Shown here piece after piece: positions 18,077 through 60,507 of a stretch of 64,000 bases of DNA; position 1 is the first letter of the stretch; every line of letters starts with the position of its first letter. Source of the stretch: Escherichia coli O127:H6 str. E2348/69. GTDB lineage: Bacteria > Pseudomonadota > Gammaproteobacteria > Enterobacterales > Enterobacteriaceae. A program made the translations under genes and the position numbers. Below the pieces are notes generated by a model, which saw only the letters and a program-made list of their open reading frames with translations, was not told where the DNA came from and ran no database searches. The DNA is taken from the NCBI RefSeq assembly GCF_000026545.1, contig NC_011601.1; one strand, given 5' to 3'.

Positions 18077-18084
18077 CCTTGCTA

Positions 18085-18116
18085 AATAAAAAACGGGCGG
18101 TAATACCACCGCCCGC
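18085..18116 (-). terminator. Rho-independent terminator downstream of potD
   Basis: On minus strand gcgggcggtggtattaccgcccg followed by a T-run. Confidence 0.8.
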
Positions 18117-18124
18117 TTGCTGAA

Positions 18125-19962: not shown

Positions 19963-19969
19963 TCGAGTT

Positions 19970-19983
19970 CCACCTTCTTATTC
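19970..19983. repeat. attL core: 14-bp direct repeat CACCTTCTTATTCA (prophage left junction)
   Basis: Identical 14-mer recurs at 60768-60781; bacterial potB-3'-end-like sequence (…aag aag gtg gaa ctc gaa tga = NKKVELE*) lies on the potC side. Confidence 0.75.
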
Positions 19984-20128
19984 ATAAGGCGGGACACTTT
20001 CAGGATTTTGAATTTATTCAATTTTTTCCTTTCTCCAAAATCTCTCCAAAACGTTTCCCCAAAACTAGGCCACGCATTTTACAACACTTTTTTCCTGAGA
20101 TGGTGACGGATATTCCATATGGTGTTTA

Positions 20129-21247
20129 TCAAATAACCAACTTAACCCATTCCTGACCTCGAGTATCGTTATAGCGATCGGTGGTTGCCTGGACTTTATG
20201 TCCTAGTAATGTTTTTGTATCAATACCCTGTGCACGGTACAGCCGTTCTGATAGAGAGCGTTGTTCATGAAATGTTGGCGGAGTTTTTCCTGCTGGTGGA
20301 ATTATCCCAGCCAGATCCCGTGCTTTGGCAAAGTAGTCGCTCAGGTTGTCTTTACTCATCGGCTTCGGTTGTTTCTGGTGCCGACTATGGATTAGATATG
20401 GACTTAATATTCTGTCTCGGCACCCATCAATAACTTCTTTTAACGTTATCCCAATGGCATCACAGCGTAGTGTAAGCGGTAACGCCAGACGCATTCCGGT
20501 TTTTCCCTGGGTGATATGCAAGTGTTCGTTCCACACATCTGAAAAACGCATGTGGCAAATGTCATCACGGCGCTGACCAGTAACAATCGCAAGAAGCATT
20601 GCGTTACGGATAAAGTGTTTTTCAGGCGTTGCATTGTAAATTTTTTGCCAGTCTTCCATGGTGAGCCTGGCTCTGGTTACTTTAGGGATCGGTTTACGGG
20701 TAGCCTCCGGAGGATTCCATCCAGGAGGAACTTCCCCTGCATGCTGTGCTTCTTTATAAATATCAACCCATAATCCACGATTTACTCTCGCTGTGCTGAC
20801 CATGTCTTTATCCAGCCACTCATCCAGTATTAATGCAAAGTCTCTTACTTCCAGTTCTTTCAATGGGTGGTTTCCCAGACGGGAAACCAGGTATGCAGCC
20901 ATTCGGGTTTTTTCTTTGTGAGTTGTAGCTGCAATATCTCCATTTTTCAGTCGCGTGTCCTGTATTTTCAGATATCGATCAACCCATGCCTTTAATCTGA
21001 TACCCTGACGTTTTGTTGCTGACGGACTTTCATCAATTTTGCGCATGAAATATTCAGCTTCTGCTGCAGCTATTCGCTGATTGGCTGTGGAAGCGATTTT
21101 TTCTGCCTTACCTTTGTCTGTTCCGAGTCCGTGAAATTTTCCAGTCACAGGATTTTTATACTGGTAGTAAACTCTGCCAGTTCTGCGATCAAACTTTTCG
21201 TAAAGACCGGCTACGTCAGTGCTGTTTTTTCGTGGCCTCGGTGACAT
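20129..21247 (-). CDS. int: Phage integrase, lambda Int family tyrosine recombinase
   Basis: 372 aa; catalytic region with conserved R...H..R...Y context (…FHEQRSLSERLY…LLGHKVQATTDRYNDTRGQEW) resembling lambda Int. Confidence 0.9.
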   Translation of the reverse strand: MSPRPRKNSTDVAGLYEKFDRRTGRVYYQYKNPVTGKFHGLGTDKGKAEKIASTANQRIAAAEAEYFMRKIDESPSATKRQGIRLKAWVDRYLKIQDTRLKNGDIAATTHKEKTRMAAYLVSRLGNHPLKELEVRDFALILDEWLDKDMVSTARVNRGLWVDIYKEAQHAGEVPPGWNPPEATRKPIPKVTRARLTMEDWQKIYNATPEKHFIRNAMLLAIVTGQRRDDICHMRFSDVWNEHLHITQGKTGMRLALPLTLRCDAIGITLKEVIDGCRDRILSPYLIHSRHQKQPKPMSKDNLSDYFAKARDLAGIIPPAGKTPPTFHEQRSLSERLYRAQGIDTKTLLGHKVQATTDRYNDTRGQEWVKLVI

Positions 21248-21494
21248 GAGTTAAAATCTCCTTCAGTGCATCATCATCGCCAGTATGAATTTCCGGCGCA
21301 ATTCCCGTTTCACCAGGCCCAACAAATACTGCTCGGCGATCTATCAGCCAACGCCCACGAATTTTTTGTGGTCTTGGAACGATGTATCCTAGTTTTCCGT
21401 ATTTCACCAGGGTAGTGTTTGTTATTGGGAGACTGAACCGTTTTGGTTTCCACTCGTCGAGCGTTATCAGGTACTGTTCGCTCATGGCTATCAC
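21216..21494 (-). CDS. xis: Excisionase-like protein
   Basis: Small basic ORF immediately upstream of and overlapping int, typical xis position; start codon uncertain (21494 or 21485). Confidence 0.6.
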   Translation of the reverse strand: MIAMSEQYLITLDEWKPKRFSLPITNTTLVKYGKLGYIVPRPQKIRGRWLIDRRAVFVGPGETGIAPEIHTGDDDALKEILTHVTEATKKQH

Positions 21495-21546
21495 TCCGGA
21501 ACGCGCCAGTTGCAGAATATCAACGACAACTGGCGACGGTTGAACA

Positions 21547-24018
21547 TTAAAAATCAGCCTGATTCGGGATCAGTTTTTGCCAGATAGCTGAAACGTATTT
21601 TGCCTGGTGACGAGCGTCATCAAGTGCATTATGGCGCTCACCTTCGAATGGAATAGCCGTTCTGGCATCGAAGTCTATGGCTTTCCCCAGCTCAACGATT
21701 GTGCGTACATCGCGATCGTTGTAGTAACGCCACGGGCAGGGGATCCCCTGCCGTTCGTATGAACGGCGCAAAATCGTGTTGTCGAAGTTGGCTCCATTTC
21801 CCCAAACCTGAACAAAAAATTCACCGGAGTTTTCGTCGATAAATTCCCGCAATTGTAACAGTGCATCATCTAACGGGATTTCATCGGTCATAATGGCAGA
21901 TTGCGCTTCGCGTGATTGCTTAAGCCACCATTTAATGGTGTCCCGATCAATGACTCCGCCAGCAGTTTCCAGATCGATAGTCTTACTAAATTCCGGTCCC
22001 ATATCTCCGGTTTGCGGATCGAAAAATATTGCACCTATTGAGATGATCGGGGCATCAGGATTTTTTCCCATGGTTTCAAGGTCGATCATTAGATGGTCAC
22101 ACGTCCTGCTGGTGGATGTGATTTCGTGATGACCGTTCACCTTAATTGAGTGATCTGCCGTCTCGCCAGTCTCATTATCGCTATTGTGATGCTGATTGCC
22201 GCCAGTGTTCTCCTTGTGTGGATGCTCAGCGCCTTCCATTTCCTCCGGATCATCTTCCTGAACTTCAACCTGATACTCTTCATCGAATGTTTCCTGGTAT
22301 GTTGCGTCGCCCATCACCGCACCACAATCAGGGCAGTTGCCGCCGCCGGTCTGACCGCAGGCGGTGCAGACTTTTTCCACTTCCTGTTGCACTACTGGTT
22401 CAGGTAGTTTCGTTTCTGGCTCGTTTTGTTGCGTATTTGGGCTGTTTTGTTCCGCTTTCTGGTCGTTCTGTTCCGTTTCTTGCTGGTTCTGGTTCACAGA
22501 ATCGCGGGTTTCAATCCCCTTCACCCATTTCGGATCATTCGGATCGCTAATCCCTGCAACAAATTCACCACGTGATACTGCAAGCAGTTCATCGGCGTCA
22601 GGCTGGCTGATATTGGCTGCCTGCATAATTTTGTTTACTTCGTCAGCGGTAACTTTTACCGGCCCTGGTTGTGCGGTCGTGTCAGATGCACCAGTATTTT
22701 GTTGTGAACCTGAGTATGTACCGTTTTTGCGGGCGAAATATTCTTCTTTCGTGATTTCAGTAGCCCCTGCAGCCAGTGCCTTATCCAGACCAGAAAGTTT
22801 GTTTGCGCGACCGTATTTTTCGCTATCCTTGTCGGTGAAGAGGAAGTAGAACGGCCCTTCACGCTCTACAGATGGTTCGACTTCCACTTTGCATTCGGTT
22901 TTTTCGTTGTCCGGAATTGCCGTTTCCACTGCATCAGTTTCTGGTACTGGCGACGAGAGAGTATCAGTTGCGCTCTGATTTGTTCCTTCATCTTCAAACA
23001 CGCCCTTTGTAGTCAGGTATTCAGTAATGTATTTGTTCAGTGCCACAGGGTCTTTGTGAATGTCGATCGGACGTTCACGGACAAGGCCAAAAATAGTCTG
23101 GCGGTCGTAGCGAAGGGCATCAGGCTGTTTGCGCATTGATGCCGAGATACGCTTCCAGTCTTCGCGGTAGTTGTCGATAACTTCATTTTTTGCCCAGCGA
23201 TGGATGCTGCCGTCAATGTTTCCGGCATCCACATCACCAGGCCAGAGAGCGTAGGCCAGTTCGTCATCCAGTGTTTTCCATGTCTGCTTGTATTCGCGAT
23301 GAGTGGCAGCAATGACCGGGCTGATTTTTCCTGTTGAATTTTCAGTGTTCTGTTGATTGGCTCTGGCGCGGGCGAGATCAACAACAGACGTGTATTTTCC
23401 GGTTTCCTTGCGTTCACCTTCGCGACGTTTTTTCCAGATGCGCATCTCTGCCTGAATTTCGGGCCATTTGGCACCAGGCTTACATTTATGCTTAACCCAC
23501 CCGATGGCATGCAGCTTAAGCTCCGGATACATGGCGTTAACTTCTGGCATTTTCATCAACGCTTCAACGATATGTCCGTCGAATGTTGCCATGTCTTCCT
23601 GCAACAATTCCTGTGCGCTAATCACCATATCAACGGTGATGTTTTCACATGTGTCGAACTTAACCATGACAGCGTTCTGTACTTCAGGGGCCAGCTTGTC
23701 AAAAGTGACGTTCATCGGATCGGATTCAGTCTCAACCGGGACAAAAGAAGCAGAATCCTCATCCCAGCGGTTTTCCTGCATATATTCAGCATCCCATGAA
23801 TCGAGGGCAGGGCGGGGTATGCCAGGTTTATCCTCGCAGACAATAAATTTATAAGCGCAGTCCTGAGCAGCCGGATAATGTTCCAGGAATTGCCAGTGAA
23901 ATTTTGCTCGAGCACGGCGTTCGTCGCCAGCTTCAATGGCTGTGGCTACAGCCACAGCGCCTTCTTCCCTTGTTGCCAGTTCGTCAGGAATAGCGGCGCA
24001 AATAAAGACTTTACTCAT
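21547..24018 (-). CDS. RecE-like protein with C-terminal DEDDh-type 3'-5' exonuclease domain
   Basis: Segment LLAVSRGEFVAGISDPNDPKWVKGIETRDSVNQNQ resembles RecE (exonuclease VIII) as recalled; acidic linker; C-terminal DLETMG...NGANFD...HNALDDARH DnaQ-like motifs. Confidence 0.7.
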   Translation of the reverse strand: MSKVFICAAIPDELATREEGAVAVATAIEAGDERRARAKFHWQFLEHYPAAQDCAYKFIVCEDKPGIPRPALDSWDAEYMQENRWDEDSASFVPVETESDPMNVTFDKLAPEVQNAVMVKFDTCENITVDMVISAQELLQEDMATFDGHIVEALMKMPEVNAMYPELKLHAIGWVKHKCKPGAKWPEIQAEMRIWKKRREGERKETGKYTSVVDLARARANQQNTENSTGKISPVIAATHREYKQTWKTLDDELAYALWPGDVDAGNIDGSIHRWAKNEVIDNYREDWKRISASMRKQPDALRYDRQTIFGLVRERPIDIHKDPVALNKYITEYLTTKGVFEDEGTNQSATDTLSSPVPETDAVETAIPDNEKTECKVEVEPSVEREGPFYFLFTDKDSEKYGRANKLSGLDKALAAGATEITKEEYFARKNGTYSGSQQNTGASDTTAQPGPVKVTADEVNKIMQAANISQPDADELLAVSRGEFVAGISDPNDPKWVKGIETRDSVNQNQQETEQNDQKAEQNSPNTQQNEPETKLPEPVVQQEVEKVCTACGQTGGGNCPDCGAVMGDATYQETFDEEYQVEVQEDDPEEMEGAEHPHKENTGGNQHHNSDNETGETADHSIKVNGHHEITSTSRTCDHLMIDLETMGKNPDAPIISIGAIFFDPQTGDMGPEFSKTIDLETAGGVIDRDTIKWWLKQSREAQSAIMTDEIPLDDALLQLREFIDENSGEFFVQVWGNGANFDNTILRRSYERQGIPCPWRYYNDRDVRTIVELGKAIDFDARTAIPFEGERHNALDDARHQAKYVSAIWQKLIPNQADF

Positions 24019-25312
24019 TTGTTTTAACCTCATGACAGATTTAAGGATGAACAAATCCCTGCCATTGCTGGCATATAAGAATGAAACCGGATATTTATTA
24101 CGGAACTGTTTTAAAGACCTGCCGGGATTTCGATATTATCCTGGTGAATAACTTTATCGACCGGGTAACAGTTACCGGGAATTTTCTGTTCGGTTGCTGC
24201 AGTCATACACTACTGCATTGTCCTGTGAACACTGACTGCAATATCAACTGGCTCTCCGGAAACAAGAAAAACTGTCAGAACAAGCACAAATGCTGAATTC
24301 ATTGTGCACATCCTTTTGGCATCAGACGTAAACGAGCCAGCATTGAAACAATGCATATTTTATTTAATAGCTCCCGTTCTTGTTTTCTCTTGTTAATGGC
24401 ATCTTCAGTAAATACTGGGTTACTGATAGTGACACCAATTTCAAAACAACCTTCAGACGTATTAACGTTTGGTAATAACGTTTTCATTATCGCGTCCTCA
24501 ACAATGAATTTTGTGATGCAGTGCCTGGTGCCTCCAGGTGACGTTAACCAGTTAACAATTAACGCCGGATACAGAGAATCCACCCATAACACTGTTTTTG
24601 GTTTTAACTGTTCCGCGTGCGCTCAGCCGCATTCACCACATCACAAAATTCACTTTAAAAAGGGCGGCAGAGCAGTCACGGAGTAAAACTGATACCGCCA
24701 AACGTCACCAGAAAATTGATAACAGAGGGCGTTGCAGCGGGGTTGTCACTTAAGCGTATGGTCAACCTGACAACCCGGTGTCCTCAACGGGGGAAGGAAT
24801 AACCCCGCCATACTTACCGCCGCGCCATTTCGCGGATTGCCACAACCGGAAGCGCACGGTCGACGAAAATTTAACGACAGGCTATCTATGAACCAGCTAC
24901 CTCGCCGTGCGCTTTCGCGTTATGGTCTGACTTTTCAGGGAAATATCCTTTCAGTAAACTGTCAGTGCCGGATGCTCACCCGTGTCCGGCGCACGCACTC
25001 CACCTCATCCGTGGAGAACTCCTTAATTACCAACCTTAGCTTCGTTGGTTAGCTATTAACGCGGGTATGTAATCATTCTGGCAATGCTTAATGTCGCTGC
25101 TTTTTCCAGATTAGTGATATCCTGCTCCAGAGCGGACAGATTTTCAGCCTGCTTAGCCCTGGCTTCATTGGCCCATTTCAGATCCTGCGCTGCATTAATT
25201 TTCTGGCGCATCCACTCATAAAGTTCATCATCGGTATAGTCTGGCGCGATGATGACGGGTTCTCGTTTCTGCATACTGATTCCTCGCGGTGCTGTTTCGC
25301 TTATCAGCCGTT

Positions 25313-32495: not shown

Positions 32496-33117
32496 AAATC
32501 CAATTAGATTCAGCGCAGAGTCATTAGATATTATTGAGAAAAAATTGTCTTCTCCAGATTTTAAGCATACCAACTGGGGAGATGATGATTTGCAAGTTCT
32601 CCGTGCAGAAATTAGAAATCATTACAGAGAAGAACAAAAGCTAGAATGTGTATATTGTCATGAGCCTATTGGGGTAAGAGCTGCACAAGCTGCTCCTATA
32701 GAGCATATTGTGCCAAAATCTCAATATCTATGTTTTATTTTTGAACCTAAGAATCTATGTGTAGTATGTCCTGACTGCAATGAATTCAAAGGTAAAAATG
32801 AAGTGTTATTTGAACCCGTAATAAATGGGGGGCGGCGCAAAAACTATCCAACTGCATCTGCATCATTTCGCATCGTTCATCCACATATAGATGATTATGA
32901 GATGCATATTATAAAAGCAAATCGTGTTTATGTGGACAAAACACCTAAAGGGCACTATACCATTGGAATATGTAAACTAAATAGATTTTTTCATTATTTT
33001 GGGATGTGTGATGAATTTGTTAATGATGCAAAAATTGCTGAGGCAAATGAAAATTTTTTCAAAAAAGGTAGTATTACTACTAATGAATTATTGGATGATG
33101 ACATTCATTTGATTTAA
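32473..33117 (+). CDS. HNH endonuclease, Septu PtuB-like
   Basis: HNH/zinc motif CVYCHEP...IEHIVPKS...CVVCPDCNEFKGKN; 214 aa; start overlaps ATPase gene end by 23 nt. Confidence 0.75.
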   Translation: MKFMPKIKNPIRFSAESLDIIEKKLSSPDFKHTNWGDDDLQVLRAEIRNHYREEQKLECVYCHEPIGVRAAQAAPIEHIVPKSQYLCFIFEPKNLCVVCPDCNEFKGKNEVLFEPVINGGRRKNYPTASASFRIVHPHIDDYEMHIIKANRVYVDKTPKGHYTIGICKLNRFFHYFGMCDEFVNDAKIAEANENFFKKGSITTNELLDDDIHLI

Positions 33118-33371
33118 CTATGAATTATTATATTGTAAAGTAATCAGGTAAGATATGTTAGACAGTGAGACTATTGCCTTACAGAATTCATTATTCTTAT
33201 GGATCGCCTTTCTGACTGATTTCATATTGGCGGGGTAACGGGAGTTAAGTAGAATGGCTGCGGGTGCTTGAGGCTATCTGTCTCAGGCATGAACACCAAA
33301 GGCAGATAGAGAAAAGCCCCAGTTAACATTACGCGTCCTGCAAGACGCTTAACATTAATCTGAGGCCAATT

Positions 33372-34460
33372 TCATGCTAGACACATGTAGGTTAGCCTCT
33401 TACGTGCCGGAAGGCAAGGAGATGTATGGGTCCACCACATATTGCAATTTTTATTCTCTTTTAAAATATATTCCACGGGCGTCATTAGTGCGAGCGCCTT
33501 GTGGGGTCTTTTGCTGTTATACAGCACCAGATATTCCGCCAGCTTCTGGTTAAATAGCGCCAGATCTTCAAAGAGTAAAATCTCATTAAATTCAATAAAC
33601 TGCTCTCTTAACGTCCGGTTAAAACGTTCACAGATAGCGTTCATTTTTGGCGTGTAGGGATAGGTCCAGAGGTGTTTGATAGCGGCTTCCTGCAGCGTTT
33701 TGTCGAAGTTTCCCAGGAACTCTTTTCCGTTATCTGTGATTATCTGGCTGATACCGACCGGGAACAACCGGGCTGCGCGGCTGAAGAAGTGATTGACGAT
33801 ATCACTGTTGAGTGACGGCACAGCCAGCGCCAGCGCGTAATTGCTGCATTCGTCGATCATGGTGATGACATAGCGACGCAGTTCGCCCATTCTGAGCTCA
33901 ATGGCGTCCATCCCAATGAGCTCACCTGTCTTTACCGGGCGGTAGTGCTTTGGCCTGCGGGGTTTGGCAGACCGCTTTTTGACAAGCAGTGCCTTCCCCC
34001 GCGATCCCAGACGCACAGGTATCATCCGCATTTTATCATGTGCGGCAGCGATCATTCTGCCGATGGTGGAAACACTCGGACAGGCCAGATAGCGCTGTTC
34101 GCACCAGGGCTTCAGGCGAACAAAAATCTGCTCTTTACCGAGGTTCGGCAGCTCTGTCCTGAGGCGTCGAATCTCTTTCAGCACATCGGGATGCCAGTGT
34201 TTTTTTCGTCGCACCAGAGGTGCCTTACTGTGCGGGATTAGCCCCTCAGGTCCTTCCTTGTTCAGTAACTGACGCCACCAGTAAAGCGTGCGGCAGGACA
34301 CGCCAAAGGCTTCAGAAGCTGCAGAAATACCGTGTTTATCCCAGAAGTGCAGAGCCTTCATTCTCATTGTTGCTATATCAGCCATCACTGAAAGCCTCAA
34401 CGCATAATCGGCCGTTTGGTAGTACTTAGGATAGCCAACCATCAGATGCTGCATTTGCAT
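33372..34460 (-). CDS. IS481-family DDE transposase (integrase-core/rve domain)
   Basis: 362 aa; N-terminal HTH (...CRTLYWWRQ...), DDE core, C-terminal ...YNSKRPHKALALMTPVEY typical of rve transposases. Confidence 0.7.
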   Translation of the reverse strand: MQMQHLMVGYPKYYQTADYALRLSVMADIATMRMKALHFWDKHGISAASEAFGVSCRTLYWWRQLLNKEGPEGLIPHSKAPLVRRKKHWHPDVLKEIRRLRTELPNLGKEQIFVRLKPWCEQRYLACPSVSTIGRMIAAAHDKMRMIPVRLGSRGKALLVKKRSAKPRRPKHYRPVKTGELIGMDAIELRMGELRRYVITMIDECSNYALALAVPSLNSDIVNHFFSRAARLFPVGISQIITDNGKEFLGNFDKTLQEAAIKHLWTYPYTPKMNAICERFNRTLREQFIEFNEILLFEDLALFNQKLAEYLVLYNSKRPHKALALMTPVEYILKENKNCNMWWTHTSPCLPARKRLTYMCLA

Positions 34461-36560: not shown

Positions 36561-36926
36561 ATGACTGAACGCATAGAATTTGTTTTGCCTTACCCGCCAA
36601 CGGTGAACACTTACTGGCGACGTCGTGGCAGCACATATTTTGTATCAAAAGCCGGTGAGCGTTATCGCCGTGATGTGGCGCTTATTGTTCGCCAGCAGCG
36701 GCTGAAATTAAACCTGTCCGGAAGGCTGGCGATAAAGATTATTGCAGAGCCACCGGATAAACGTCGTCGTGACCTGGACAATATCCTGAAAGCACCACTG
36801 GATGCGCTGACGCATGCCGGACTTCTCATAGACGACGAGCAGTTTGATGAAATCAATATTGTGCGCGGTCAGCGCGTTCCTGGGGGGCGGCTGGGCGTGA
36901 AGATTTACAAAATTGAGAGTGAGTGA
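36561..36926 (+). CDS. rusA: Holliday-junction resolvase RusA
   Basis: 121 aa; ...PPDKRRRDLDNILKAPLDALTHAGLLIDDEQ... matches the RusA catalytic core (RRDLDN) as recalled. Confidence 0.88.
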   Translation: MTERIEFVLPYPPTVNTYWRRRGSTYFVSKAGERYRRDVALIVRQQRLKLNLSGRLAIKIIAEPPDKRRRDLDNILKAPLDALTHAGLLIDDEQFDEINIVRGQRVPGGRLGVKIYKIESE

Positions 36927-37477
36927 TCGTAAATATGATATATCCGGAAATTACAGGCAAAAGCGGCGAGCATTTACGTCTAAAAACGCTGGAAGCCGTC
37001 TGGATCCAGGGGAAATTACGGATGTGGGGGCGTTGGTCGTATATAGGTGGTGGCAAACCAGGAAATATGTTCAATCAGTTGCTGGCATCCAAAAAACTGA
37101 CAAAAACCGCGGTCAATGAAGCCCTGCGTAGAATCAGGGAGTCAGGGATTGATAAACCAGAGCTGGAAGCATTCTTGCGAGAGATGATCGCTGGCAGACA
37201 GAAGAGCTGGTTGTCTCACTGTACTGATGCAGAGGCGTTACGCATTGATGGGGTGATAAGTAAAGCGCTTGCACGTTATCCTGGATTGATTGATATCCTG
37301 CGGCAAAGGTACGAAGGGCGGGGGATGAGTAAACGCAAAATGGCTGAATTGTTGAATGAGGTTCACCCTGAGTGGTGCTATGCAACATGCCGCAATCGTA
37401 TAGATATGTGGCTGAGAATAGCTGAGTTTATTCTGTATCCACTGATGCGAGATGCATTTTCTTTTACTGACGCTTAG
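36923..37477 (+). CDS. Putative late-gene antiterminator (Q-like)
   Basis: 184-aa ORF overlapping the rusA stop, last gene before a strong terminator, as for Q/pR'/tR'; family assignment from position plus loose similarity. Confidence 0.5.
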   Translation: MIVNMIYPEITGKSGEHLRLKTLEAVWIQGKLRMWGRWSYIGGGKPGNMFNQLLASKKLTKTAVNEALRRIRESGIDKPELEAFLREMIAGRQKSWLSHCTDAEALRIDGVISKALARYPGLIDILRQRYEGRGMSKRKMAELLNEVHPEWCYATCRNRIDMWLRIAEFILYPLMRDAFSFTDA

Positions 37478-37643
37478 AATCTGGAGGGCGTTTGTTGTTG
37501 CACGAAGAGGATTTTTGGCTGGTAGTAAGGTTTGTGCAGTTTTAGAAAAAAAGCTTGTATTTTTAGCCATAAACTGTTTCAATCCAGCTACGCTTCGCAA
37601 AGCTGTACCGCGAGGCGAATAGCAGACATGGACACCTGAAAGA

Positions 37644-37668
37644 ACCCGCTTTATGCGGGTTTTTTTTA
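37644..37668 (+). terminator. Rho-independent terminator, candidate tR'
   Basis: acccgctttatgcgggt stem-loop followed by T9, about 170 bp downstream of the Q-like gene. Confidence 0.7.
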
Positions 37669-37790
37669 TGCCTGAAAAACGGCACAGAACATTAAACGCG
37701 CTGGTTGTTGTGAATACTGGTCTTTCAGCTTGCTGGCTTTTTCGACAAGAGGTATTGGTATGTCACGTTAACCGGAAAAGGGAAAAAGGC

Positions 37791-37988
37791 ATGCTAAAAC
37801 AGCTGGATATGACCGAAACCGCCAGAGTGGTGTTTAATGAATTAAGCGTCACCGAACCGGCGACCGTCGGGGAAATTGCGCAGAATACTTACCTTTCACG
37901 CGAACGCTGCCAGTTAATACTGACTCAGCTTGTTATGGCGGGTCTGGCAGATTATCAGTTCGGTTGTTACAGACGCCTTCCGCAGTGA
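37791..37988 (+). CDS. Small hypothetical protein
   Basis: 65-aa ORF MLKQLDMTETARVVFNELSVTEPATVGEIAQ... with possible winged-helix character. Confidence 0.35.
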   Translation: MLKQLDMTETARVVFNELSVTEPATVGEIAQNTYLSRERCQLILTQLVMAGLADYQFGCYRRLPQ

Positions 37989-38138
37989 AGGCTTTTTAAT
38001 TTGTGGTAATGGGCGGCTGGTGGGTGTTAGCGGCACCTGCCAGCCATCTGCTCATGCGTTGGGGTCACAAGCAAACCTCAGGCCCATCTGCTTTGCGCAA
38101 AAGCGGTATGAGCCTATCAGAGAAGTGCTTATTGATCT

Positions 38139-39188
38139 ATGATTAATACTGTAAAAATATCCAGTTGTGAGTTAATCAACGCTGATTGCCTGGAATTTAT
38201 CCAGACCTTACCGGAAAACTCTGTCGATCTGATAGTCACAGACCCGCCATACTTTAAAGTGAAGCCCGAGGGCTGGGATAACCAGTGGGAGGGCGACGAT
38301 GATTACCTGAAATGGCTGGACCAGTGTCTGGCGCAGTTCTGGCGGGTACTGAAGCCTGCCGGAAGTCTTTACCTGTTCTGTGGTCATCGCCTGGCATCTG
38401 ACACCGAAATCATGATGCGTGAGCGCTTTAATGTGCTGAACCACATTATCTGGGCGAAGCCGTCCGGACGCTGGAACGGGTGCAATAAGGAAAGTCTGCG
38501 GGCGTATTTTCCGGCAACAGAGCGCATTCTGTTTGCAGAACATTATCAGGGACCGTATCGCCCGAAAGATGATGGCTATGTGGCACAGGGGCGCGAGCTA
38601 AAACAGCACGTCATGGCCCCGCTGATTTCTTACTTTCGTGATGCGCGTAAATCACTGGGAATAACGTCAAAACAGATAGCGGAAGCCACCGGAAAGAAAA
38701 ACATGGCTTCGCACTGGTTTGGTACCAGTCAGTGGCAGTTACCGAACGAGGGTAATTACAACAAATTGCAGGCGTTGTTTGCGCGTGTTGCGGCAGAAAA
38801 ACATCAGCGCGGGGAACTGGAAAAGCCACACCACCAGCTGGTCAGCACATACAGTGAGCTGAACCGGCAGTATACGGAACTGCTGAGTGAATATAAAAAT
38901 TTGCGGCGGTATTTCGGTGTGACGGCGCAGGTTCCGTACACCGATGTCTGGACGCATAAACCGGTGCAGTACTATCCAGGGAAACATCCGTGCGAAAAAC
39001 CGGCAGAAATGCTGCAGCAGATAATCAACGCGAGCAGTCGTCCGGGAGACCTGGTTGCAGATTTTTTTATGGGTTCAGGTTCAACGGTAAAAGCGGCGAT
39101 GGCACTGGGGCGTTGTGCGATTGGTGTTGAGCTGGAGACAGGACGTTTTGAACAGACAGTCAGGGAAGTTCAGGATTTAATCGTTTGA
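38139..39188 (+). CDS. Orphan DNA methyltransferase (N6-adenine/N4-cytosine, beta class)
   Basis: Motif IV TDPPY (LIVTDPPYF) near N-terminus and AdoMet-binding FxGSGST (FFMGSGSTV) near C-terminus; no adjacent restriction gene. Confidence 0.85.
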   Translation: MINTVKISSCELINADCLEFIQTLPENSVDLIVTDPPYFKVKPEGWDNQWEGDDDYLKWLDQCLAQFWRVLKPAGSLYLFCGHRLASDTEIMMRERFNVLNHIIWAKPSGRWNGCNKESLRAYFPATERILFAEHYQGPYRPKDDGYVAQGRELKQHVMAPLISYFRDARKSLGITSKQIAEATGKKNMASHWFGTSQWQLPNEGNYNKLQALFARVAAEKHQRGELEKPHHQLVSTYSELNRQYTELLSEYKNLRRYFGVTAQVPYTDVWTHKPVQYYPGKHPCEKPAEMLQQIINASSRPGDLVADFFMGSGSTVKAAMALGRCAIGVELETGRFEQTVREVQDLIV

Positions 39189-39237
39189 AACGGATGGGAT
39201 TGCAGAATTAATTACGCACCATTATTATTCTGCTACC

Positions 39238-39313
39238 GGCCCTTTAGCTCAGTGGTGAGAGCGAGCGACTCATAATCGCCAGGTCGCTGGTTCAAATCCA
39301 GCAAGGGCCACCA
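39238..39313 (+). tRNA. ileZ: tRNA with CAU anticodon, Ile2-like (ileZ-type of lambdoid phages)
   Basis: Hand-folded cloverleaf: acceptor GGCCCTT/AAGGGCC, D-arm GCTC..GAGC, anticodon loop CTCATAA, T-arm GCTGG TTCAAAT CCAGC, CCA end; resembles E. coli tRNA-Ile2 as recalled. Confidence 0.85.
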
Positions 39314-39320
39314 TCACATA

Positions 39321-39397
39321 CCGCCATTAGCTCATCGGCAGAGAGCGTCAGCTTTCGAAACTGGCTGTGTGGGGCCCGGGTCCCCGATGGCAATCCA
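39321..39397 (+). ncRNA. Degenerate tRNA-like element (possible pseudo-tRNA, argN-like position)
   Basis: U8A9 + D-arm GCTCATCGGCAGAGAGC and CCA end, but mismatched acceptor, 9-nt anticodon loop and atypical T-loop. Confidence 0.3.
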
Positions 39398-39410
39398 TTA
39401 TTTGCATTAT

Positions 39411-39487
39411 GCGTTGTTAGCTCAGCCGGACAGAGCAATTGCCTTCTAAGCAATCGGTCACTGGTTCGAATCCAGTACAACGCGCCA
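39411..39487 (+). tRNA. argO: tRNA-Arg (anticodon UCU)
   Basis: Cloverleaf: acceptor GCGTTGT/ACAACGC, anticodon stem ATTGC/GCAAT with loop CTTCTAA, T-arm ACTGG TTCGAAT CCAGT, CCA end. Confidence 0.9.
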
Positions 39488-39597
39488 TATTCATTCTTCC
39501 AGATTTCTTCCGGCAGAGCCTTATACTGGAATATACCTGGCTCAGGATATTGTTGAAAATATTATATGTTTGTCAAAAATAAAAGTTCTGTTAAGTA

Positions 39598-39951
39598 TTG
39601 ATTGAGTGTTTGTTATACGGTCTAATGGTTTTTTCAGTATTAAATATTTATCATTCATATGGTGTGGGTAGAGTGAATATTGATGAGGCGTCGGGGTGTT
39701 TCATCCTTAGGCAGCGTATTGATATAGTCAATGCAGCACGAGCAAAGGCCTTCAGCCGTTTGACAGTTTTGTTCTGTACTCCTGATCGTCTTTCGGGAAG
39801 AGACGTTATTCTTCTGAATAGTGATGCTATACAGAGGGTTTGCGATGAGTTCATGGTTGCTAATTCAGAATTATTTGCTCTTGTTCAGGAGTACAACAGA
39901 ATAGCCAGGACCTGTGGTATGGATGAACTTCGGATTACTCATCTGGGGTAG
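39598..39951 (+). CDS. Hypothetical protein (117 aa) at the position occupied by stx in Stx phages
   Basis: ORF directly downstream of the tRNA cluster; hydrophobic N-terminus; no recognisable family. Confidence 0.45.
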   Translation: MIECLLYGLMVFSVLNIYHSYGVGRVNIDEASGCFILRQRIDIVNAARAKAFSRLTVLFCTPDRLSGRDVILLNSDAIQRVCDEFMVANSELFALVQEYNRIARTCGMDELRITHLG

Positions 39952-40979
39952 ATACATATCTGGATTATCACCTGTTACGGTAAAAAGTGATTGCTTACTG
40001 TTTTTGTGAATGGCATTGCAGCAGCCGGATAATGTCAGTGCTGGCTGACTGTGTACTGGTGGCGGGTGTGGTGGTTGTTGCTTTCCCGTTGCTGAAAAAG
40101 AAAACGCCAGACTGTTAGCCGGAGAAATTTTTAAATACTTCACAATTCAGGCGGTTGACTGTTGTCTGGTTTGCGGGGAGTTTGTTAAAAGAAACTGGCA
40201 TGGTGAATCCACCTGTGCGGAGGGGCAATCAGCGAGTAGGTATATGGGATAATCGCGGATTCAGGTGCTGGTACTGAATTCACCGGGAGGCACCCGGCAC
40301 CATGCAATGGCACATAGCGCCACTCTCCAGCCCCTCTCCGGAGGGGCTGTTTATATTGATTTTGTCAGATGTGAGTAAACTCCTTATGGACTTTGTTGTT
40401 TTAGTCCATAAGGACATATTTGCAGAGTGCAACGGTTATTAAAGCATTCATTCAATACGTTATCTGTATTTGTAGGGCATTCCTGGCTGTTTTTGATTAA
40501 ATTCCAGAATGTTTTATTGAATGGTACTACGTTGTAAATGGTTACAGGTAGCACTTTGTTATTGAGCATGATACCTGTGTGAGTCAGTGTAAATATACTT
40601 TCAGGAGGTAAGAAAGCATCCGATTGATACCAGATTATTAATTTTATTTTACTCCATATGACTGAAAAAGATATTCCGCATGATGGCTGGATAACTGTAT
40701 CAATCACAATCCACTTCATTTAGTTTCCTTGTTTATGCCTTGCTGGTGATGTTCTGAAAAGTATAAATGATATTTTTGATTGTAAACCATAGAGCAGAAT
40801 TATTTTTCTGATGTTGTTTATTGTTTATTTAAATGCAGGGTGGTTTATATCTCGTCTTGTAGTTTATCCATGCATATCTGCTTGATGATGAGGTTTTTAT
40901 TTAAGGTATGGTTTTGTGTTTTTTCTGTATTACATGTCAGGTATTTTAAAGAATTATTTTTCAGATGGTGGAAAGAACC

Positions 40980-42830
40980 ATGGCATTTAAACACTATGAT
41001 GTTGTCAGGGCGGCGTCGCCGTCAGATCTTGCGGAAAAGCTGACACATAAACTGAAAGAGGGCTGGCAGCCGTTTGGTAGTCCGGTGGCCATAACCCCTT
41101 ATACCCTGATGCAGGCGATTGCAGCAGAAGGTGATGTGGTCGTCAGTGGTGCAACTGAGCCAGAGTGGTACTACGTCATCGTACTGGCCGGGCAATCCAA
41201 TGCCATGGCTTACGGTGAAGGGCTTCCGCTTCCGGATTCATACGATGCGCCCCATCCGCGCATTAAGCAACTGGCCCGTCGTAACACAGTGACTCCCGGT
41301 GGTGAAGTATGCGTATTTAACGACATCATTCCTGCTGACCATTGTCTGCATGATGTTCAGGATATGAGTACGATTAACCATCCCCGGGCTGACCTGAGCA
41401 AAGGGCAGTACGGCTGTGTCGGACAGGGCTTACATATTGCCAAAAAACTGCTTCCGTATATCCCTAATAATGCGGGGATCCTGCTGGTACCATGCTGTCG
41501 TGGTGGTTCGGCATTCACCCAGGGCACGGAGGGGACATTCAGCGAGTCCACGGGGGCCAGTCAGGATTCGGCTCGCTGGGGAGTGGGTAAGCCGTTATAT
41601 CAGGATCTGCTTTTCCGCACGAAGGCAGCATTGCAGAAAAACCCGAAAAACGTTTTGCTGGCGATATGCTGGATGCAGGGGGAATTCGATATGACGAATG
41701 CCAGTTACGCCCAGCAGCCAGCAGCATTTCTTGCAATGGTACAGCAGTTCCGTGCTGACTTTGCCGGGCTGGCGGCGCAGTGTCACGGTGGAAGTCCGGC
41801 ATCAGTCCCCTGGATTTGTGGCGACACGACATACGCGTGGAAACAAGAACACGGTACGCAATATGAAGTGGTATATGGTGCATATAAAGGTAAAGAATCC
41901 CAGCAGATTTATTTTGTTCCCTTTATGACCGATGGTAGCGGAGTTAATACACCGACAAACAACCCGTCAGAAGATCCTGATATTGCCGGGTCTGGTTATT
42001 ACGGTTCGGCATCCCGAACGAACAAAAACTGGGTATCATCAAATCGCCCGACGCATTTCAGCTCATGGGCGCGTCGTGGCATTATTCCCGATCGTATGGC
42101 AACTGCTATTCTGAACGTAGCCGGTCGCACCTTAGCCTTCATTAGTGGTAAGGCACCGGAAATCAAACCCTCGCCCGGCGGCGACACGCCATCGGGGCCG
42201 TCTGAAGATGCATCCGTACGCACAATCTCCCTGTTGCCGACAGCCGGAGATGCTGCTGCGCAGGGCTGGAGCATTAAGAATGGCGGAATTCAGTTGTCAG
42301 ATGGTGTATTTAAGATCACCAAGCAGAGCAATAAAACCTGGTCCCTGATGCATCCGGTGGATGACGCAATTACCCTGCTGACACAGGGCGGCAGACTGAC
42401 CTGTAAGTTCCGCCTCTCAGGCGCACTGACCAACAATCAGTTCGGGCTGGGGATTTATCTGTATACGGACGCTCCCGTTCCTGATGATGTGGCGATGACG
42501 GGTACTGGTAATCCGTTCCTGATGTCTTACTTCACTCAGACCACTGACGGCAGAGTGAATCTGATGCATCACAGGAAAGCCGGAAACACGAAGCTGGGGG
42601 AGTTCGGCGATTACGGTAACGACTGGCAGACGCTGGAGCTGGTGTTCACCGCCGGCAGTGCCACGGTTACTCCGAAACTGAATGGAGTGGCTGGCCCGGC
42701 ATTCCAGGTTATAAAAGACAGTCTGACACTGGGACTGAATGCGCTGACGCTGACGGATGTTACAAAAAATGCAGCGTATGGCGTTGAGATAGAAAGTCTG
42801 GTGCTGGAGATAAATGCACCGGCAGCATAA
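40980..42830 (+). CDS. NanS-p-type sialate O-acetylesterase (DUF1737 + SASA domains)
   Basis: N-terminus MAFKHYDVVRAASPSDLAEKLTHKLKEGWQPFGSP and GQSNAMAY esterase motif match the Stx-phage nanS-p/yjhS-like protein family as recalled. Confidence 0.85.
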   Translation: MAFKHYDVVRAASPSDLAEKLTHKLKEGWQPFGSPVAITPYTLMQAIAAEGDVVVSGATEPEWYYVIVLAGQSNAMAYGEGLPLPDSYDAPHPRIKQLARRNTVTPGGEVCVFNDIIPADHCLHDVQDMSTINHPRADLSKGQYGCVGQGLHIAKKLLPYIPNNAGILLVPCCRGGSAFTQGTEGTFSESTGASQDSARWGVGKPLYQDLLFRTKAALQKNPKNVLLAICWMQGEFDMTNASYAQQPAAFLAMVQQFRADFAGLAAQCHGGSPASVPWICGDTTYAWKQEHGTQYEVVYGAYKGKESQQIYFVPFMTDGSGVNTPTNNPSEDPDIAGSGYYGSASRTNKNWVSSNRPTHFSSWARRGIIPDRMATAILNVAGRTLAFISGKAPEIKPSPGGDTPSGPSEDASVRTISLLPTAGDAAAQGWSIKNGGIQLSDGVFKITKQSNKTWSLMHPVDDAITLLTQGGRLTCKFRLSGALTNNQFGLGIYLYTDAPVPDDVAMTGTGNPFLMSYFTQTTDGRVNLMHHRKAGNTKLGEFGDYGNDWQTLELVFTAGSATVTPKLNGVAGPAFQVIKDSLTLGLNALTLTDVTKNAAYGVEIESLVLEINAPAA

Positions 42831-43042
42831 TAAAAAAAGCCAGCGCCCACTCTGAAGGACGCTGGCTAAAACGGGTAGATGTACTTCACATGATACTTAT
42901 ACTTGGCAGTACATTTTCTGACAGACAGTGACGGATGTTGTCAAGATATTGTGTCATTTATAACCTGAATCAGGGGTTGGCCGGAATGTTATCTGGCATT
43001 TTTAGCAGAGCCTGAATGCCATAATCACGGCTCCCGGCGTTG

Positions 43043-43073
43043 GCCGTCAGTGGGTGACACTGGCGGCTTTTTT
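43043..43073 (+). terminator. Rho-independent terminator
   Basis: gccgtcagtg...cactggcggc stem followed by T6. Confidence 0.6.
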
Positions 43074-43085
43074 GTGCACAGAAAA

Positions 43086-44663
43086 CCCCCAGCTAGGCTC
43101 TGTCTCTTATACACAAATCCCCACCCGGGGATTTGTGATGTCTGTCAGTCTGCTTTAGGGGGACTCTTTCCATCCGGTAGTTTCCTTCCTCCCCGGCAGC
43201 GATTTTTTGAACTTTTTCCTCACCCGTTGATCTTCTCTTATATTTCATTTTCTTCGGGTCTGTTATGGTACTTTCTGATTGTTATTCATGGGCTAACGAG
43301 CAGTTTGGACATGCCCGTCTCGGTGATCCGCGTCGTACACGACGCCTTGTGTCACTGGCCTCTTCTCTCGCTCAGCATGCAGGTCTTTCTATTGTGAAAT
43401 CATCCCAGTCCACTGCTCAGGTTGAAGGTGCGTACCGCCTGATACGTAACCCGTCTGTGTCCCCGCAAGCCATTGCCGAAGCCGGATTTACCGCCACTGT
43501 AAGGGCATGTGAGGCTCATCCGCTGCTCCTCGCGCTGGAAGACACCACCACCATTAACTTCAGTCACAGTACGGCATCTGATGACCTGGGGAATACCACC
43601 ACTAACCCGAAGACGCGCGGGCTGCTGGCTCACTCTGTCCTGATGTACGCCCCCGACAGCGCCCTGCCAGTCGGTCTTATCGAACAGCAGCGCTGGAGTC
43701 GTGCCACGGACACCTACGGTGTTAAGCACCAGCGAAAAGAACGTCCCTATGAAGAAAAAGAAAGTTACCGCTGGCAGCAGGCTTCGGAGCGCATGGCCGA
43801 ACGGCTGGGGGAGATACAGAAACGGGTAATCACTGTCTGTGACCGGGAAGCGGATATCTGGCATTACCTGCATTATAAAGTCAGCCACGGGCAGCGCTTC
43901 GTGGTGCGTGCAGCACAGAATCGCCGGCTGGAAGAAGCACCCGGCAAGCTCTTCGAACTGCCGGAAGTCCTGGCAACCGCGGGAAGCCACACGCTGAATG
44001 TGATGCAAAAAGGCGGGCGGGCAGCCCGCCAGGCCCGGATGTTCATCAGTTACAGCGAAGTCAGCATAAAAAATCCCGACAACAGCGGCCAGGCGCTCCC
44101 GCTCACGTATGTCTGTTGCCGGGAGCAGGCAGAGGACGGCGCCTGCTGGCATCTGCTGACGTCAGAAAAAGTGGCGAGTGCCGCCGATGCGCGACGTATC
44201 GTCAGCCATTACGAGCGACGCTGGCTGATAGAGGAATACCACAAGGCGTGGAAAAGTGGTGGTACATGTGTGGAATCGCTGCGAATGCAGACCCGGGATA
44301 ACCTCGAGCGCATGGTGGTTATCAAGGCGTTTATCGCGGTGCGGGTGCTGGGCCTGCGGCAGGGCGGTATCAGTGAAGAAACACAAAATGACAGCTGTGA
44401 GAAAATACTGACGCCGACAGAGTGGAAACTGCTGTGGGTTAAGCTGGAAGGAAAACCGCTTCCGTCACAGATGCCGACACTGAAATGGGCCTGTCTGAAA
44501 CTGGCGAAACTGGGGCGATGGCATGACAGCAAACGCACCGGTCGCCCCGGTTGGGTAGTCATGTGGGATGGCTGGTTCAGACTTCAGGATATGGTTGAGG
44601 GTTACCTGGTGATGAAGTCTCTTGATCAGGAGATCTGATCAAGAGACAGAGCTAGGCTGGGGG
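43086..44663 (+). mobile_element. IS4-family (IS50-like) insertion sequence
   Basis: Imperfect terminal inverted repeats CCCCCAGCTAGGCTCTGTCTCTT (43086) and revcomp of aagagacagagctaggctggggg (44639-44663), containing the CTGTCTCTT motif of IS50 ends; Tn5-Tnp-like transposase inside. Confidence 0.8.
43265..44638 (+). CDS. IS50-like DDE transposase
   Basis: 457 aa, colinear with Tn5 transposase as recalled (LGDPRRTRRLV..., ...YERRWLIEEYHKAWKSG..., ...NLERMV...). Confidence 0.85.
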   Translation: MVLSDCYSWANEQFGHARLGDPRRTRRLVSLASSLAQHAGLSIVKSSQSTAQVEGAYRLIRNPSVSPQAIAEAGFTATVRACEAHPLLLALEDTTTINFSHSTASDDLGNTTTNPKTRGLLAHSVLMYAPDSALPVGLIEQQRWSRATDTYGVKHQRKERPYEEKESYRWQQASERMAERLGEIQKRVITVCDREADIWHYLHYKVSHGQRFVVRAAQNRRLEEAPGKLFELPEVLATAGSHTLNVMQKGGRAARQARMFISYSEVSIKNPDNSGQALPLTYVCCREQAEDGACWHLLTSEKVASAADARRIVSHYERRWLIEEYHKAWKSGGTCVESLRMQTRDNLERMVVIKAFIAVRVLGLRQGGISEETQNDSCEKILTPTEWKLLWVKLEGKPLPSQMPTLKWACLKLAKLGRWHDSKRTGRPGWVVMWDGWFRLQDMVEGYLVMKSLDQEI

Positions 44664-59952: not shown

Positions 59953-60507
59953 CGGACCATAACAATTTATAATCTGCTGGCCGGAACTAATGAATTTATT
60001 GGTGAAGGTGACGCATATATTCCGCCTCATACAGGTCTGCCAGCAAACAGTACCGATATTGCACCACCAGATATTCCTGCTGGCTTTGTGGCTGTTTTCA
60101 ACAGTGATGAGGCATCGTGGCATCTCGTTGAAGACCATCGGGGTAAAACGGTTTATGACGTAGCGTCAGGGGACGAGTTATTTATTTCTGAACTCGGTCC
60201 GTTACCGGAAAATGTTACCTGGTTATCGCCGGAAGGGGAGTTTCAGAAGTGGAACGGCACAGCCTGGGTGAAAGATGCAGAAGCAGAAAAACTGTTCCGG
60301 ATCCGGGAGGCGGAAGAAACAAAAAACAACCTGATGCAGGTAGCCAGTGAGCATATTGCGCCACTTCAGGATGCGGTAGATCTGGAAATCGCAACGGAGG
60401 AAGAAAACTCGTTGCTGGAAGCCTGGAAGAAGTATCGGGTGTTGCTGAACCGTGTTGATACATCAACTGCACCTGATATTGAGTGGCCGACTTCACCTGC
60501 AGAGTAA
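59953..60507 (+). pseudogene. tfa: Tail fibre assembly protein (tfa) lacking its first codons and start
   Basis: [87 protein letters not shown]... colinear with lambda Tfa from about residue 10; homology ends abruptly at the IS2 remnant. Confidence 0.8.

Follow-up and report, generated by a model that had tools for sequence, protein, structure and literature searches.

Prophage PP5 of Escherichia coli E2348/69 holds a probable cargo stretch with a sequence-assigned iraL gene in a late region of the Stx-phage type

Introduction

The anti-adaptor IraL of Escherichia coli CFT073, which has the same accession as the protein discussed below, binds RssB and stabilises RpoS in log phase (PMC4045071). 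Its gene, c1429, is induced at 37 °C (PMC12890032), and the protein was reported to be 58.9% identical to IraM (PMC4045071). Stx2 phages carry STnc100/EcOnc27 at the position where an element of this family lies in the present locus (PMC12370729, PMC12711010).

We analysed a window of 64,000 nucleotides from the E. coli strain E2348/69 (NC_011601.1, 1,248,001-1,312,000). Positions below are those of this whole stretch and are converted to genome coordinates by adding 1,248,000, an offset read from the supplementary GFF of PMC8550237. The interval under study lies within PP5, a defective lambdoid prophage beside potC of this EPEC strain. Its integration site is that of the potB island of CFT073, and window positions 17002-22659 are 98.8% identical between the two strains across potD, potC and the integrase gene.

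Results

The following genes frame the interval:

36923-37477, plus strand: Q-like late antiterminator of the DUF1133 type, bounding the late region on its left (phrog_753 'anti-termination protein Q-like', E 3.5e-78; PGAP DUF1133 family)
38139-39188, plus strand: DNA adenine methyltransferase (NCBIfam and PHROG methyltransferase matches), no restriction enzyme being annotated beside it
39238-39313, plus strand: ileZ-type tRNA with anticodon CAT, start of the tRNA cluster (ARAGORN; Rfam tRNA, 72.5 bits; PGAP tRNA-Ile)
39321-39397, plus strand: argN (tRNA-Arg UCG), read here as a pseudogene (called neither by ARAGORN nor by PGAP; Rfam 22.2 bits against a gathering threshold of 29)
39411-39487, plus strand: tRNA-Arg (UCU) of the argO type, anticodon TCT (ARAGORN; Rfam 70.1 bits)
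40965-42830, plus strand: nanS-p-type esterase with DUF1737 and SASA domains, right boundary of the interval (PGAP 'SASA family carbohydrate esterase'; phrog_143, E 0; aligns with the NanS genes of PA28 and phi296)
42832-42909, minus strand: PasC sRNA, just past nanS-p (published 1290832-1290909 minus 1,248,000)

An earlier note made from the letters of this DNA had proposed a late layout like that of Stx phages, and this is borne out. The Q gene, a methylase without a restriction partner, the tRNAs and nanS-p were all located, and the order Q, tRNAs, cargo, STnc100, nanS-p, lysis genes was recovered by blastn synteny with the phages PA28 and phi296, the holin and lysozyme genes being annotated by PGAP further downstream in the window. 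Over 409 nt comprising the methylase 3' end and the tRNAs, identity to the Stx2a phage PA28 is 89%; nanS-p and the STnc100 element can likewise be aligned with this phage. In both PA28 and phi296 a remnant of the methylase, its last 100 nt or so, still precedes the tRNAs. The Northern probe for PasC (PMC8550237) matches exactly at 42860-42884, and the PasC terminator lies at 42867-42838. CFT073 carries the block 39199-41206 at 96.8% identity, and at least 80% of 39200-41000 was found in 862 of the 5,426 complete E. coli genomes. Since PP5 looks defective and IS elements separate nanS-p from the holin gene (PGAP annotation), late transcription driven by Q may no longer occur.

Within the ileZ-argN-argO trio, both ileZ and argO passed the detectors ARAGORN and Rfam, while argN failed them. 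Set against the argN genes of CFT073, PA28 and phi296, which are functional, its T-loop has changed from TTCGAGT to CCCGGGT and the 3' strand of its acceptor from GGCGG to GGCAA, which breaks two pairs of the acceptor stem. Judged by these changes argN is a pseudogene; the annotation of 2009 had carried it as tRNA25.

Between argO and nanS-p the plus strand holds the following features:

39496-40130, no strand assigned: insert A, the DNA at the stx2AB position, from argO to the STnc100 element (blastn against PA28 and phi296)
39598-39951, plus strand: ORF of 117 codons with a TTG start (phrog_2873, E 1.8e-69); its conserved core, 39673-39951, encodes 92 aa from a GTG start
39598-39672, plus strand: non-conserved upstream extension or possible leader ORF preceding the 92-aa core
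39987-40118, plus strand: small hydrophobic protein of the DUF3927/TciB-like type, 43 aa from GTG 39987 (PGAP: 28 aa from ATG 40032)
40169-40358, plus strand: STnc100-family sRNA gene, assigned by its Rfam match (RF02076, 123.6 bits, gathering threshold 47, model positions 1-206 of 206)

Homology to PA28 and phi296 is lost at 39495, 8 nt past argO, and regained at 40131/40140. The slot thus bounded measures 635 nt here, 1,369 nt in PA28, where it holds stx2A and stx2B, and 57 nt in the stx-free phi296. Since insert A fills exactly the interval of stx2AB, its borders coinciding with those of the toxin genes in PA28, the idea of an alternative cargo in the stx slot was correct. The absence of StxA/StxB similarity from the interval also stands: tblastn with Stx2A and Stx2B gave a best E value of 3.9 in the interval and of 0.27 across the whole window, so that carriage of stxA and stxB, which marks an Stx-converting phage, was not detected in the window.

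The same borders could be taken as the trace of a toxin-gene replacement, as the earlier note had considered: a Shiga-toxin phage would have lost stxAB here, and the DNA now seen would have filled the space. The left and right borders of the insert are indeed those of stx2AB in PA28, and the methylase remnant in Stx2 phages points to a common ancestry of the two backbones. Common borders, however, indicate a shared exchange site and not the direction of an exchange, and an 'empty' allele free of stx is known from phi296. Moreover, tblastn detected no Stx2A/B remnant, the same cassette recurs with 98.7% identity in the non-Stx phage mEp460_ev081 and is also present in the UPEC strain CFT073, and the 92-aa family occupies this slot in several other prophage backbones, beside AraC-like and TerB-like genes. 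A toxin-replacement scar is thus very unlikely.

PGAP/RefSeq leave the gene in insert A unannotated in E2348/69 and in CFT073, and the annotation of 2009 omits it too. This omission, a start codon (TTG or GTG) behind a weak Shine-Dalgarno sequence and the lack of any Pfam match, even at E 10, or NCBIfam match for the 92-aa protein would suit a chance ORF in a non-coding spacer that the annotations rightly left out. We regard this as highly improbable, since the ORF frame shows a dN/dS of 0.26 over 92 codons against a homologue of 62% protein identity, while the two alternative frames give 1.2 and 0.9. Full-length homologues reach down to about 30% identity and keep the motifs ER..AFS.LTV.Y.TPDR and AN.EL..LV.EYN, intact members number in the hundreds, and AlphaFold2 gives a confident model of the core (pLDDT 88.7). 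By these measures of conservation the ORF is a real gene, and RefSeq thus omits a small gene under purifying selection.

The predicted structure of the core is a helical hairpin, with long helices at residues 3-34 and 50-81 of the AlphaFold2 model, and AFDB entries with the same predicted hairpin come from E. coli, Citrobacter and Salmonella. Likenesses to characterised proteins did not emerge from the PDB sequence search (noise, E 0.29), from Foldseek against the PDB (generic helical hairpins, best E 0.17) or from fold matches in AFDB50 (uncharacterised proteins). An HMM search of 1.84 billion representatives returned 20 matches in all for the 92-aa family; the weakest of these, in a Mu-like baseplate region, is a doubtful member. 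By the earlier note, its reading would be contradicted if the ORF were already known as a conserved phage protein with no relation to cargo. The ORF does belong to a conserved phage family, PHROG 2873, but in the four loci inspected (L010, L006, L013 and L016) this family is found downstream of Q and, on contigs long enough to show it, upstream of nanS-p or holin; therefore it is not unrelated to cargo.

Three starts are available to the ORF, TTG 39598 (117 aa), ATG 39625 (108 aa) and GTG 39673 (92 aa). The long form with its hydrophobic N-terminus invites a reading as a secreted or membrane-anchored toxin-like cargo of 117 aa, for which the N-terminus would serve as signal or anchor. The long frame is open in the E2348/69 lineage, gene callers often give forms of 108-118 aa, and the first 20 upstream codons of the two closest lineages differ by five synonymous changes, including a TCA/AGC serine switch, with a dN/dS of 0.52 on very few sites. 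Against this, the distant homologues are all 91-95 aa long and begin at the equivalent of 39673. In L010 and L011 the sequence before the core lies in a different frame and stops at a TGA overlapping the GTG start; in L006 an IS takes its place, and in L013 unrelated sequence stands there. In addition, the extension has no basic n-region. A signal or anchor function is thus unlikely, and by this comparison the conserved protein lacks the hydrophobic N-terminus: the ORF of the earlier note stands as a gene at 39598-39951, while its N-terminus falls outside the 92-aa core. A conserved leader peptide upstream of the core is suggested by the two lineages and is missing in the third.

We tentatively consider a further reading, possible though on balance doubtful, in which the 92-aa gene is a genuine cargo allelic to stxAB and expressed from the Q-dependent late transcript. 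Its role could be directed at the host or at the exclusion of phages, perhaps in concert with the AraC-like regulators and the TerB/TciB module found alongside it in other prophages, and the 20-25 upstream codons might serve as a translationally coupled leader ORF.

The 43-aa form of the mini-protein matches Pfam PF13064 (E 8.6e-26, model positions 7-53 of 53) and phrog_1470 'TciB-like' (E 6.4e-12). In L016 the order is the 92-aa family, a TerB-like gene and then the DUF3927 family. The STnc100 element aligns to the element that directly follows stx2B in PA28 and argO in phi296. A terminator scan placed an intrinsic terminator at 40328-40349, followed by TTTAT, and the single-sequence fold has a z-score of only -1.75. 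On the strength of the Rfam match we assign 40169-40358 as an STnc100-family sRNA gene. A promoter scan found 8 sites against 8.2 expected in shuffled sequence, and we claim no promoter for the ORF or for STnc100. Among the entries covered from the tables of PMC8550237, those of RIL-seq showed no sRNA between tRNA26 and E2348C_1245, and STnc100 was likewise not found among those of RNA-seq. Identity of this copy with PasD was rejected, the probes for PasA, PasB and PasD having no match in the window, where PasC alone matches. The RIL-seq candidate 'E2348C_ncR36.E2348C_2757' was likewise rejected as this locus; its coordinates fall in PP10.

The DNA in front of nanS-p had been described as about 1 kb of AT-rich sequence (39960-40960) with only weak ORFs. 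The AT-rich part is restricted to the 606 nt of 40359-40964 (32.2% GC), while 39960-40358, at 49.9%, has the average GC content of the window (49.7%). Nor are its ORFs weak: apart from the DUF3927 ORF and the STnc100 sRNA gene, a gene of 111 aa lies on the minus strand:

40384-40719, minus strand: iraL (E2348C_1245), RssB anti-adaptor of the IraM/IraL family by its match to NF007393 (162 bits, cut-off 121, residues 1-110 of 111)
40720-40964, minus strand: upstream region of iraL, 29% GC, 239/245 nt identical to the iraL upstream region of CFT073
40786-40781, 40765-40760 and 40730-40725, minus strand: candidate iraL promoter with putative -35 (TTTACA) and -10 (TATACT) elements, and putative Shine-Dalgarno sequence (AAGGAA)

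The accession of the encoded protein, WP_000871291.1, is that of the single IraM-family gene in the potB island of CFT073. Both levels of identity that PMC4045071 applied to iraL were exceeded, with 335/336 nt of the coding sequence (at least 95%) and 239/245 nt, or 97.6%, of the upstream region (at least 96%). Transcription starting some 34 nt ahead of the ATG would agree with the '-100 to +33' fragment used as promoter in PMC4045071. The RNA-seq tables of PMC8550237 give E2348C_1245 a low base mean of about 12. Chimeras of Spot 42 with iraL mRNA have been seen by RIL-seq.

NCBIfam and PGAP label this protein 'anti-adapter protein IraM', and its N-terminal 78 residues align with the solved IraM chain 8twd_A (E 9e-32), as would be expected of an IraM orthologue controlled by PhoPQ and low Mg2+ as in K-12. 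Such an assignment is scarcely credible, since identity to K-12 IraM is only 59.5%, whereas the accession is that of CFT073 IraL and the upstream region is shared with it. Furthermore, iraL and iraM matches do not overlap, and their regulation and RssB contacts differ (PMC4045071). By sequence identity the minus-strand gene is iraL, and by analogy its product would have the same function in E2348/69 as in CFT073. The earlier note had considered the 117-aa ORF in the slot as a possible alternative moron; the best-established cargo gene is instead iraL, on the opposite strand and in the AT-rich DNA that the note had dismissed.

Discussion

We consider it highly probable that the interval is a cargo ('moron') stretch of the PP5 late region, in which an Stx-phage backbone carries two inserts, A and B, the latter with iraL. 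The backbone would consist of Q, the methylase, ileZ-argN-argO, the STnc100 sRNA, nanS-p and the lysis genes, with both inserts sitting on it. Insert A would contribute the gene for the 92-aa helical hairpin and the DUF3927/TciB-like mini-protein in the orientation of the late operon and, like stx2, would be read mainly off the Q-antiterminated late transcript, while the STnc100 element with its terminator would form the 3' end of transcripts leaving the slot. The AT-rich insert B (40359-40964) would express iraL on the opposite strand from a promoter of its own. The conserved tRNA and STnc100 flanks probably act as recombination anchors between which cargoes are swapped, be it stx2AB, nothing or the 92-aa cassette. 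Three alleles of a single exchange site thereby come into clean view: stx2AB, empty, and the 92-aa gene with DUF3927.

The main outcome is a corrected reading of the interval, in which a previously known prophage sRNA also borders the slot. The locus itself is ordinary and largely known, having been published for CFT073, E2348/69 and Stx phages except for the 92-aa gene.

The closest described counterpart is the iraL locus of CFT073 (c1429, potB island; PMC4045071, Hryckowian et al. 2014), which has the same neighbours, namely the tRNAs, the 117-aa ORF, DUF3927, the STnc100 region and the 5' end of nanS, in a prophage integrated at the same site beside potC. CFT073 is a UPEC strain with a truncated nanS-p and a functional argN, whereas E2348/69, an EPEC strain, has an intact nanS-p and a degenerate argN.

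Stx2 phages of the PA28 and 933W type have their tRNAs, STnc100 element and nanS-p arranged and oriented as in PP5, and their slot has the same borders. In PP5, in contrast, the slot holds the 92-aa gene and DUF3927 in place of stxAB, and the minus-strand iraL insert lies as an extra element between STnc100 and nanS-p. Compared to PA28, the methylase is of full length, and Q is of the DUF1133 type, unlike that of PA28. EcOnc27/sRNA103 of EHEC, an STnc100 sRNA (RF02076), is placed with respect to the cargo slot and nanS-p as the copy here is (PMC12711010; Zhu et al. 2026 preprint). The copy here ends in a hairpin with a U-run, and its sequence identity to the Stx2-phage copy is only about 70%. 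The validated sRNAs of E2348/69 are PasA-D; the STnc100 copy stands outside this set, though the PasD sRNAs are related.

The core of the ORF is a member of PHROG 2873, whose relatives are uncharacterised proteins of about 92-95 aa from enterobacterial prophages. Compared to other loci of this family, the gene here has an in-frame upstream extension; compared to other prophages, it stands without the AraC-like regulator (phrog_1450) upstream and without the TerB-like gene downstream. Finally, the e14-adjacent IraM of K-12 (PDB 8TWD), 59.5% identical to IraL, shares with it both the family and the target pathway, RssB/RpoS.

A late region with two inserts

Comparison of 37000-43500 by blastn with the Stx2a phage PA28 and the stx-free Traversvirus phi296 showed that the gene order in PP5, a defective lambda-like prophage, matches a Stx-phage late region, as an earlier note on this DNA had claimed; the Q-like gene, methyltransferase and NanS-type esterase that it described were recovered by annotation and family profile matches. 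As far as 39495, 8 nt beyond argO, the methylase 3' end and the tRNAs are 89% identical, and homology to both phages is regained at 40131/40140, at an STnc100 element.

DNA between the shared borders
PP5: 39496-40130, 635 nt (insert A)
PA28: 1,369 nt, with stx2A and stx2B inside
phi296: 57 nt

The proposed stx slot can thus be defined precisely, as the blastn borders of insert A coincide with those of stx2AB in PA28. A second insert (insert B, 40359-40964) reaches from STnc100 to the nanS-p start and carries iraL, while this interval measures 232 nt in phi296 and is IS-interrupted in PA28. One shared backbone thus bears two separate inserts, the first exactly at the toxin-gene position. No Stx similarity was detectable by tblastn of Stx2A/B against the interval and the whole window, which bears out the earlier observation.

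tRNA cluster upstream of insert A
39238-39313, tRNA(CAT), ARAGORN and Rfam
39321-39397, argN-position element, 22 bits (threshold 29), no ARAGORN or PGAP call
39411-39487, tRNA-Arg(TCT) (argO), ARAGORN and Rfam

The outer two members of the expected tRNA cluster were confirmed, but the middle element is a pseudogene: set against the functional argN copies in CFT073, PA28 and phi296, its T-loop is gone (TTCGAGT became CCCGGGT), as are two pairs of the acceptor stem. Upstream of the tRNAs, the methyltransferase gene is complete in PP5 (349 aa), whereas PA28 (L003 5846-5998) and phi296 (L004 4900-4998) hold only a short 3' remnant, and the PP5 arrangement may therefore be the older one. Just 3' of the Q-like gene, weak and sub-threshold isrK/AgrB-like Rfam matches (37563-37668, +) and a terminator-like hairpin after a small ORF (37975-37992, +) were observed, which could represent the short phage late promoter (pR') transcript and the terminator (tR') of PP5.

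A conserved small protein at the toxin position

The 117-aa ORF reported for this position is present (39598-39951, TTG start), but its hydrophobic N-terminus is not conserved. The ORF belongs to PHROG 2873 (E 1.8e-69; 108-aa profile) and has no Pfam or NCBIfam match; besides close copies, searches found a second homologous lineage at 57-62% identity. When 1.84 billion representatives were searched by HMM, only 20 hits emerged, of which the useful ones (91-95 aa, 30-39% identity) all begin at the equivalent of GTG 39673. In the homologous loci L010 and L011 the upstream 25 codons stand in another reading frame, where they make up a 23-codon ORF of their own (L010 about 4714-4786), whose closing TGA overlaps the GTG start (GTGA); in L006 they are replaced by an IS, and in L013, of a more distant lineage, the sequence upstream of the core is unrelated. 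In the first 20 upstream codons (within 39598-39675) the two closest lineages differ by several synonymous changes, one of them a serine switch (TCA/AGC), so these codons could form a translationally coupled leader ORF.

For the 92-codon core, comparison with the L010 homologue gave a dN/dS of 0.26 (pS 0.58, pN 0.24), versus 1.2 and 0.9 in the other two frames of the same DNA, which demonstrates that selection acts on the 92-aa protein. The gene (39673-39951) is unannotated in RefSeq/PGAP for E2348/69 and CFT073 (copy at L012 about 32640-32990) and in the 2009 E2348/69 annotation; what RefSeq/PGAP omits is a gene under clear purifying selection. AlphaFold2 with the family alignment predicted a pair of long helices (residues 3-34, 50-81; pLDDT 88.7), and fold searches found only generic hairpins in the PDB (best E 0.17) and only uncharacterised enterobacterial proteins in AFDB50.

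In all four loci inspected (L010, L006, L013, L016) Q lies upstream of the family, and nanS-p or holin follows it wherever the contig extends that far. An AraC-like regulator precedes it in three of the four.

AraC-type regulator genes (phrog_1450) before the 92-aa family
L010 3969-4694, directly before
L016 3142-3870, directly before
L006 2933-3658, IS element in between

Downstream of the family, L016 has a TerB-like gene and, after it, a DUF3927 gene. In PP5 a 43-aa DUF3927 ORF (39987-40118, +; Pfam E 8.6e-26; 'TciB-like' PHROG) directly follows the 92-aa gene, and the intervening TerB-like gene would have been lost in the PP5 lineage. These neighbours suggest a larger cargo module in other prophages, of which PP5 retains two pieces only.

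STnc100 and iraL

Features between insert A and nanS-p
40169-40358, +, STnc100 sRNA gene (full-length Rfam match, 123.6 bits; gathering score 47)
40384-40719 (NC_011601 1288353-1288689), -, iraL, E2348C_1245, 111 aa (NF007393; same accession as CFT073 iraL)

A terminator scan placed a GC-rich hairpin of 9 bp (40328-40349), with TTTAT after it, at the end of STnc100. In Stx2 phages it lies directly 3' of stx2B and partly overlaps EcOnc27, named sRNA103 in EDL933 (PMC12370729, PMC12711010). According to a Storz laboratory preprint of 2026, STnc100 is related to the EPEC PasD sRNAs and has matches near PasC. The PGAP pseudogene 'incomplete hypothetical protein' (40188-40313, -) lies wholly within STnc100 on the opposite strand, probably as an artefact of annotation.

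The supposed 1 kb of AT-rich DNA shrinks to 40359-40964 (606 nt, 32.2% GC), the sole AT-rich part of 39960-40964, whereas 39960-40358 has 49.9% GC, the same as the window mean. Nor does this DNA hold only weak ORFs, since the 111-aa ORF scores 162 bits against NCBIfam NF007393 (anti-adapter IraM family; cut-off 121). Its RefSeq protein, WP_000871291.1, is also the single IraM-family gene product of the CFT073 potB island, known as iraL (c1429) (PMC4045071, PMC12890032). Compared to CFT073, 335/336 nt of the CDS and 239/245 nt upstream are identical; both values exceed the minimum identities set for iraL in PMC4045071 (95% across the CDS, 96% across the promoter). The protein is 59.5% identical to K-12 IraM, with 58.9% published for IraL (PMC4045071). 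We infer that TTTACA (40786-40781) and TATACT (40765-40760) form the iraL promoter; the start codon lies ~34 nt past the inferred transcription start, compatible with the '-100 to +33' promoter fragment of PMC4045071. In the tables of PMC8550237, E2348C_1245 has low RNA-seq counts, and the RIL-seq table there lists 11 Hfq-dependent chimeras of its mRNA with the core sRNA Spot 42 (spf), which hints that Spot 42 targets iraL.

Prophage context and distribution

The stretch 39200-41000 matches E. coli E2348/69 at 100% (megablast). tRNA24 (NC_011601 1287238-1287313; GFF, PMC8550237 supplement) equals 39238-39313, so the window corresponds to NC_011601.1 1,248,001-1,312,000. The Northern probe for PasC, a published sRNA assigned to PP5 (PMC8550237), matches exactly at 42860-42884, and 17002-22659 (potD, potC, integrase) shares 98.8% identity with the 'potB island' of CFT073; together they place the locus, on sequence grounds, in PP5 at the potB island site. 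PasC (42832-42909, -) is encoded just past the nanS-p 3' end, on the strand opposite to that gene, and has a strong terminator (42867-42838). The RIL-seq table in PMC8550237 counts 668 chimeras of PasA with a plus-strand fragment assigned to E2348C_1246, which corresponds to 42785-42960, the nanS-p end and DNA just beyond.

ISEc13 (IS4-like) and IS200C lie between nanS-p and the holin gene (43265-45234), with an STnc490 (IS200 leader) Rfam match at 44643-44766. That PP5 is defective shows, among other things, in these insertions. Other elements are a hokD/sok toxin-antitoxin pair (Rfam sok, 33262-33428), an IS481-family transposase immediately left of it (33372-34460, -; pair and transposase together 33262-34460), a DicF sRNA in the early region of the prophage (24662-24713, -) and an IS009 RNA-family match near the window's right end (60269-60467, +; 225 bits).

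Of 5,426 complete E. coli genomes, 862 contain at least 80% of 39200-41000, many O26, O111 and other EHEC strains among them. In a set of 50,697 phage records, insert A is essentially complete only in mEp460_ev081; the iraL insert appears in four vB_EcoS records, and no Stx-converting phage carries it.

The layout was thus described correctly, but the interval is not unknown DNA. The AT-rich part corresponds to iraL, a gene already characterised, an sRNA listed in catalogues makes up the middle, and both genomes that hold the locus have been studied heavily. The position where Stx2 phages carry their toxin genes is occupied by the gene for the small predicted helical-hairpin protein, with its DUF3927 neighbour.
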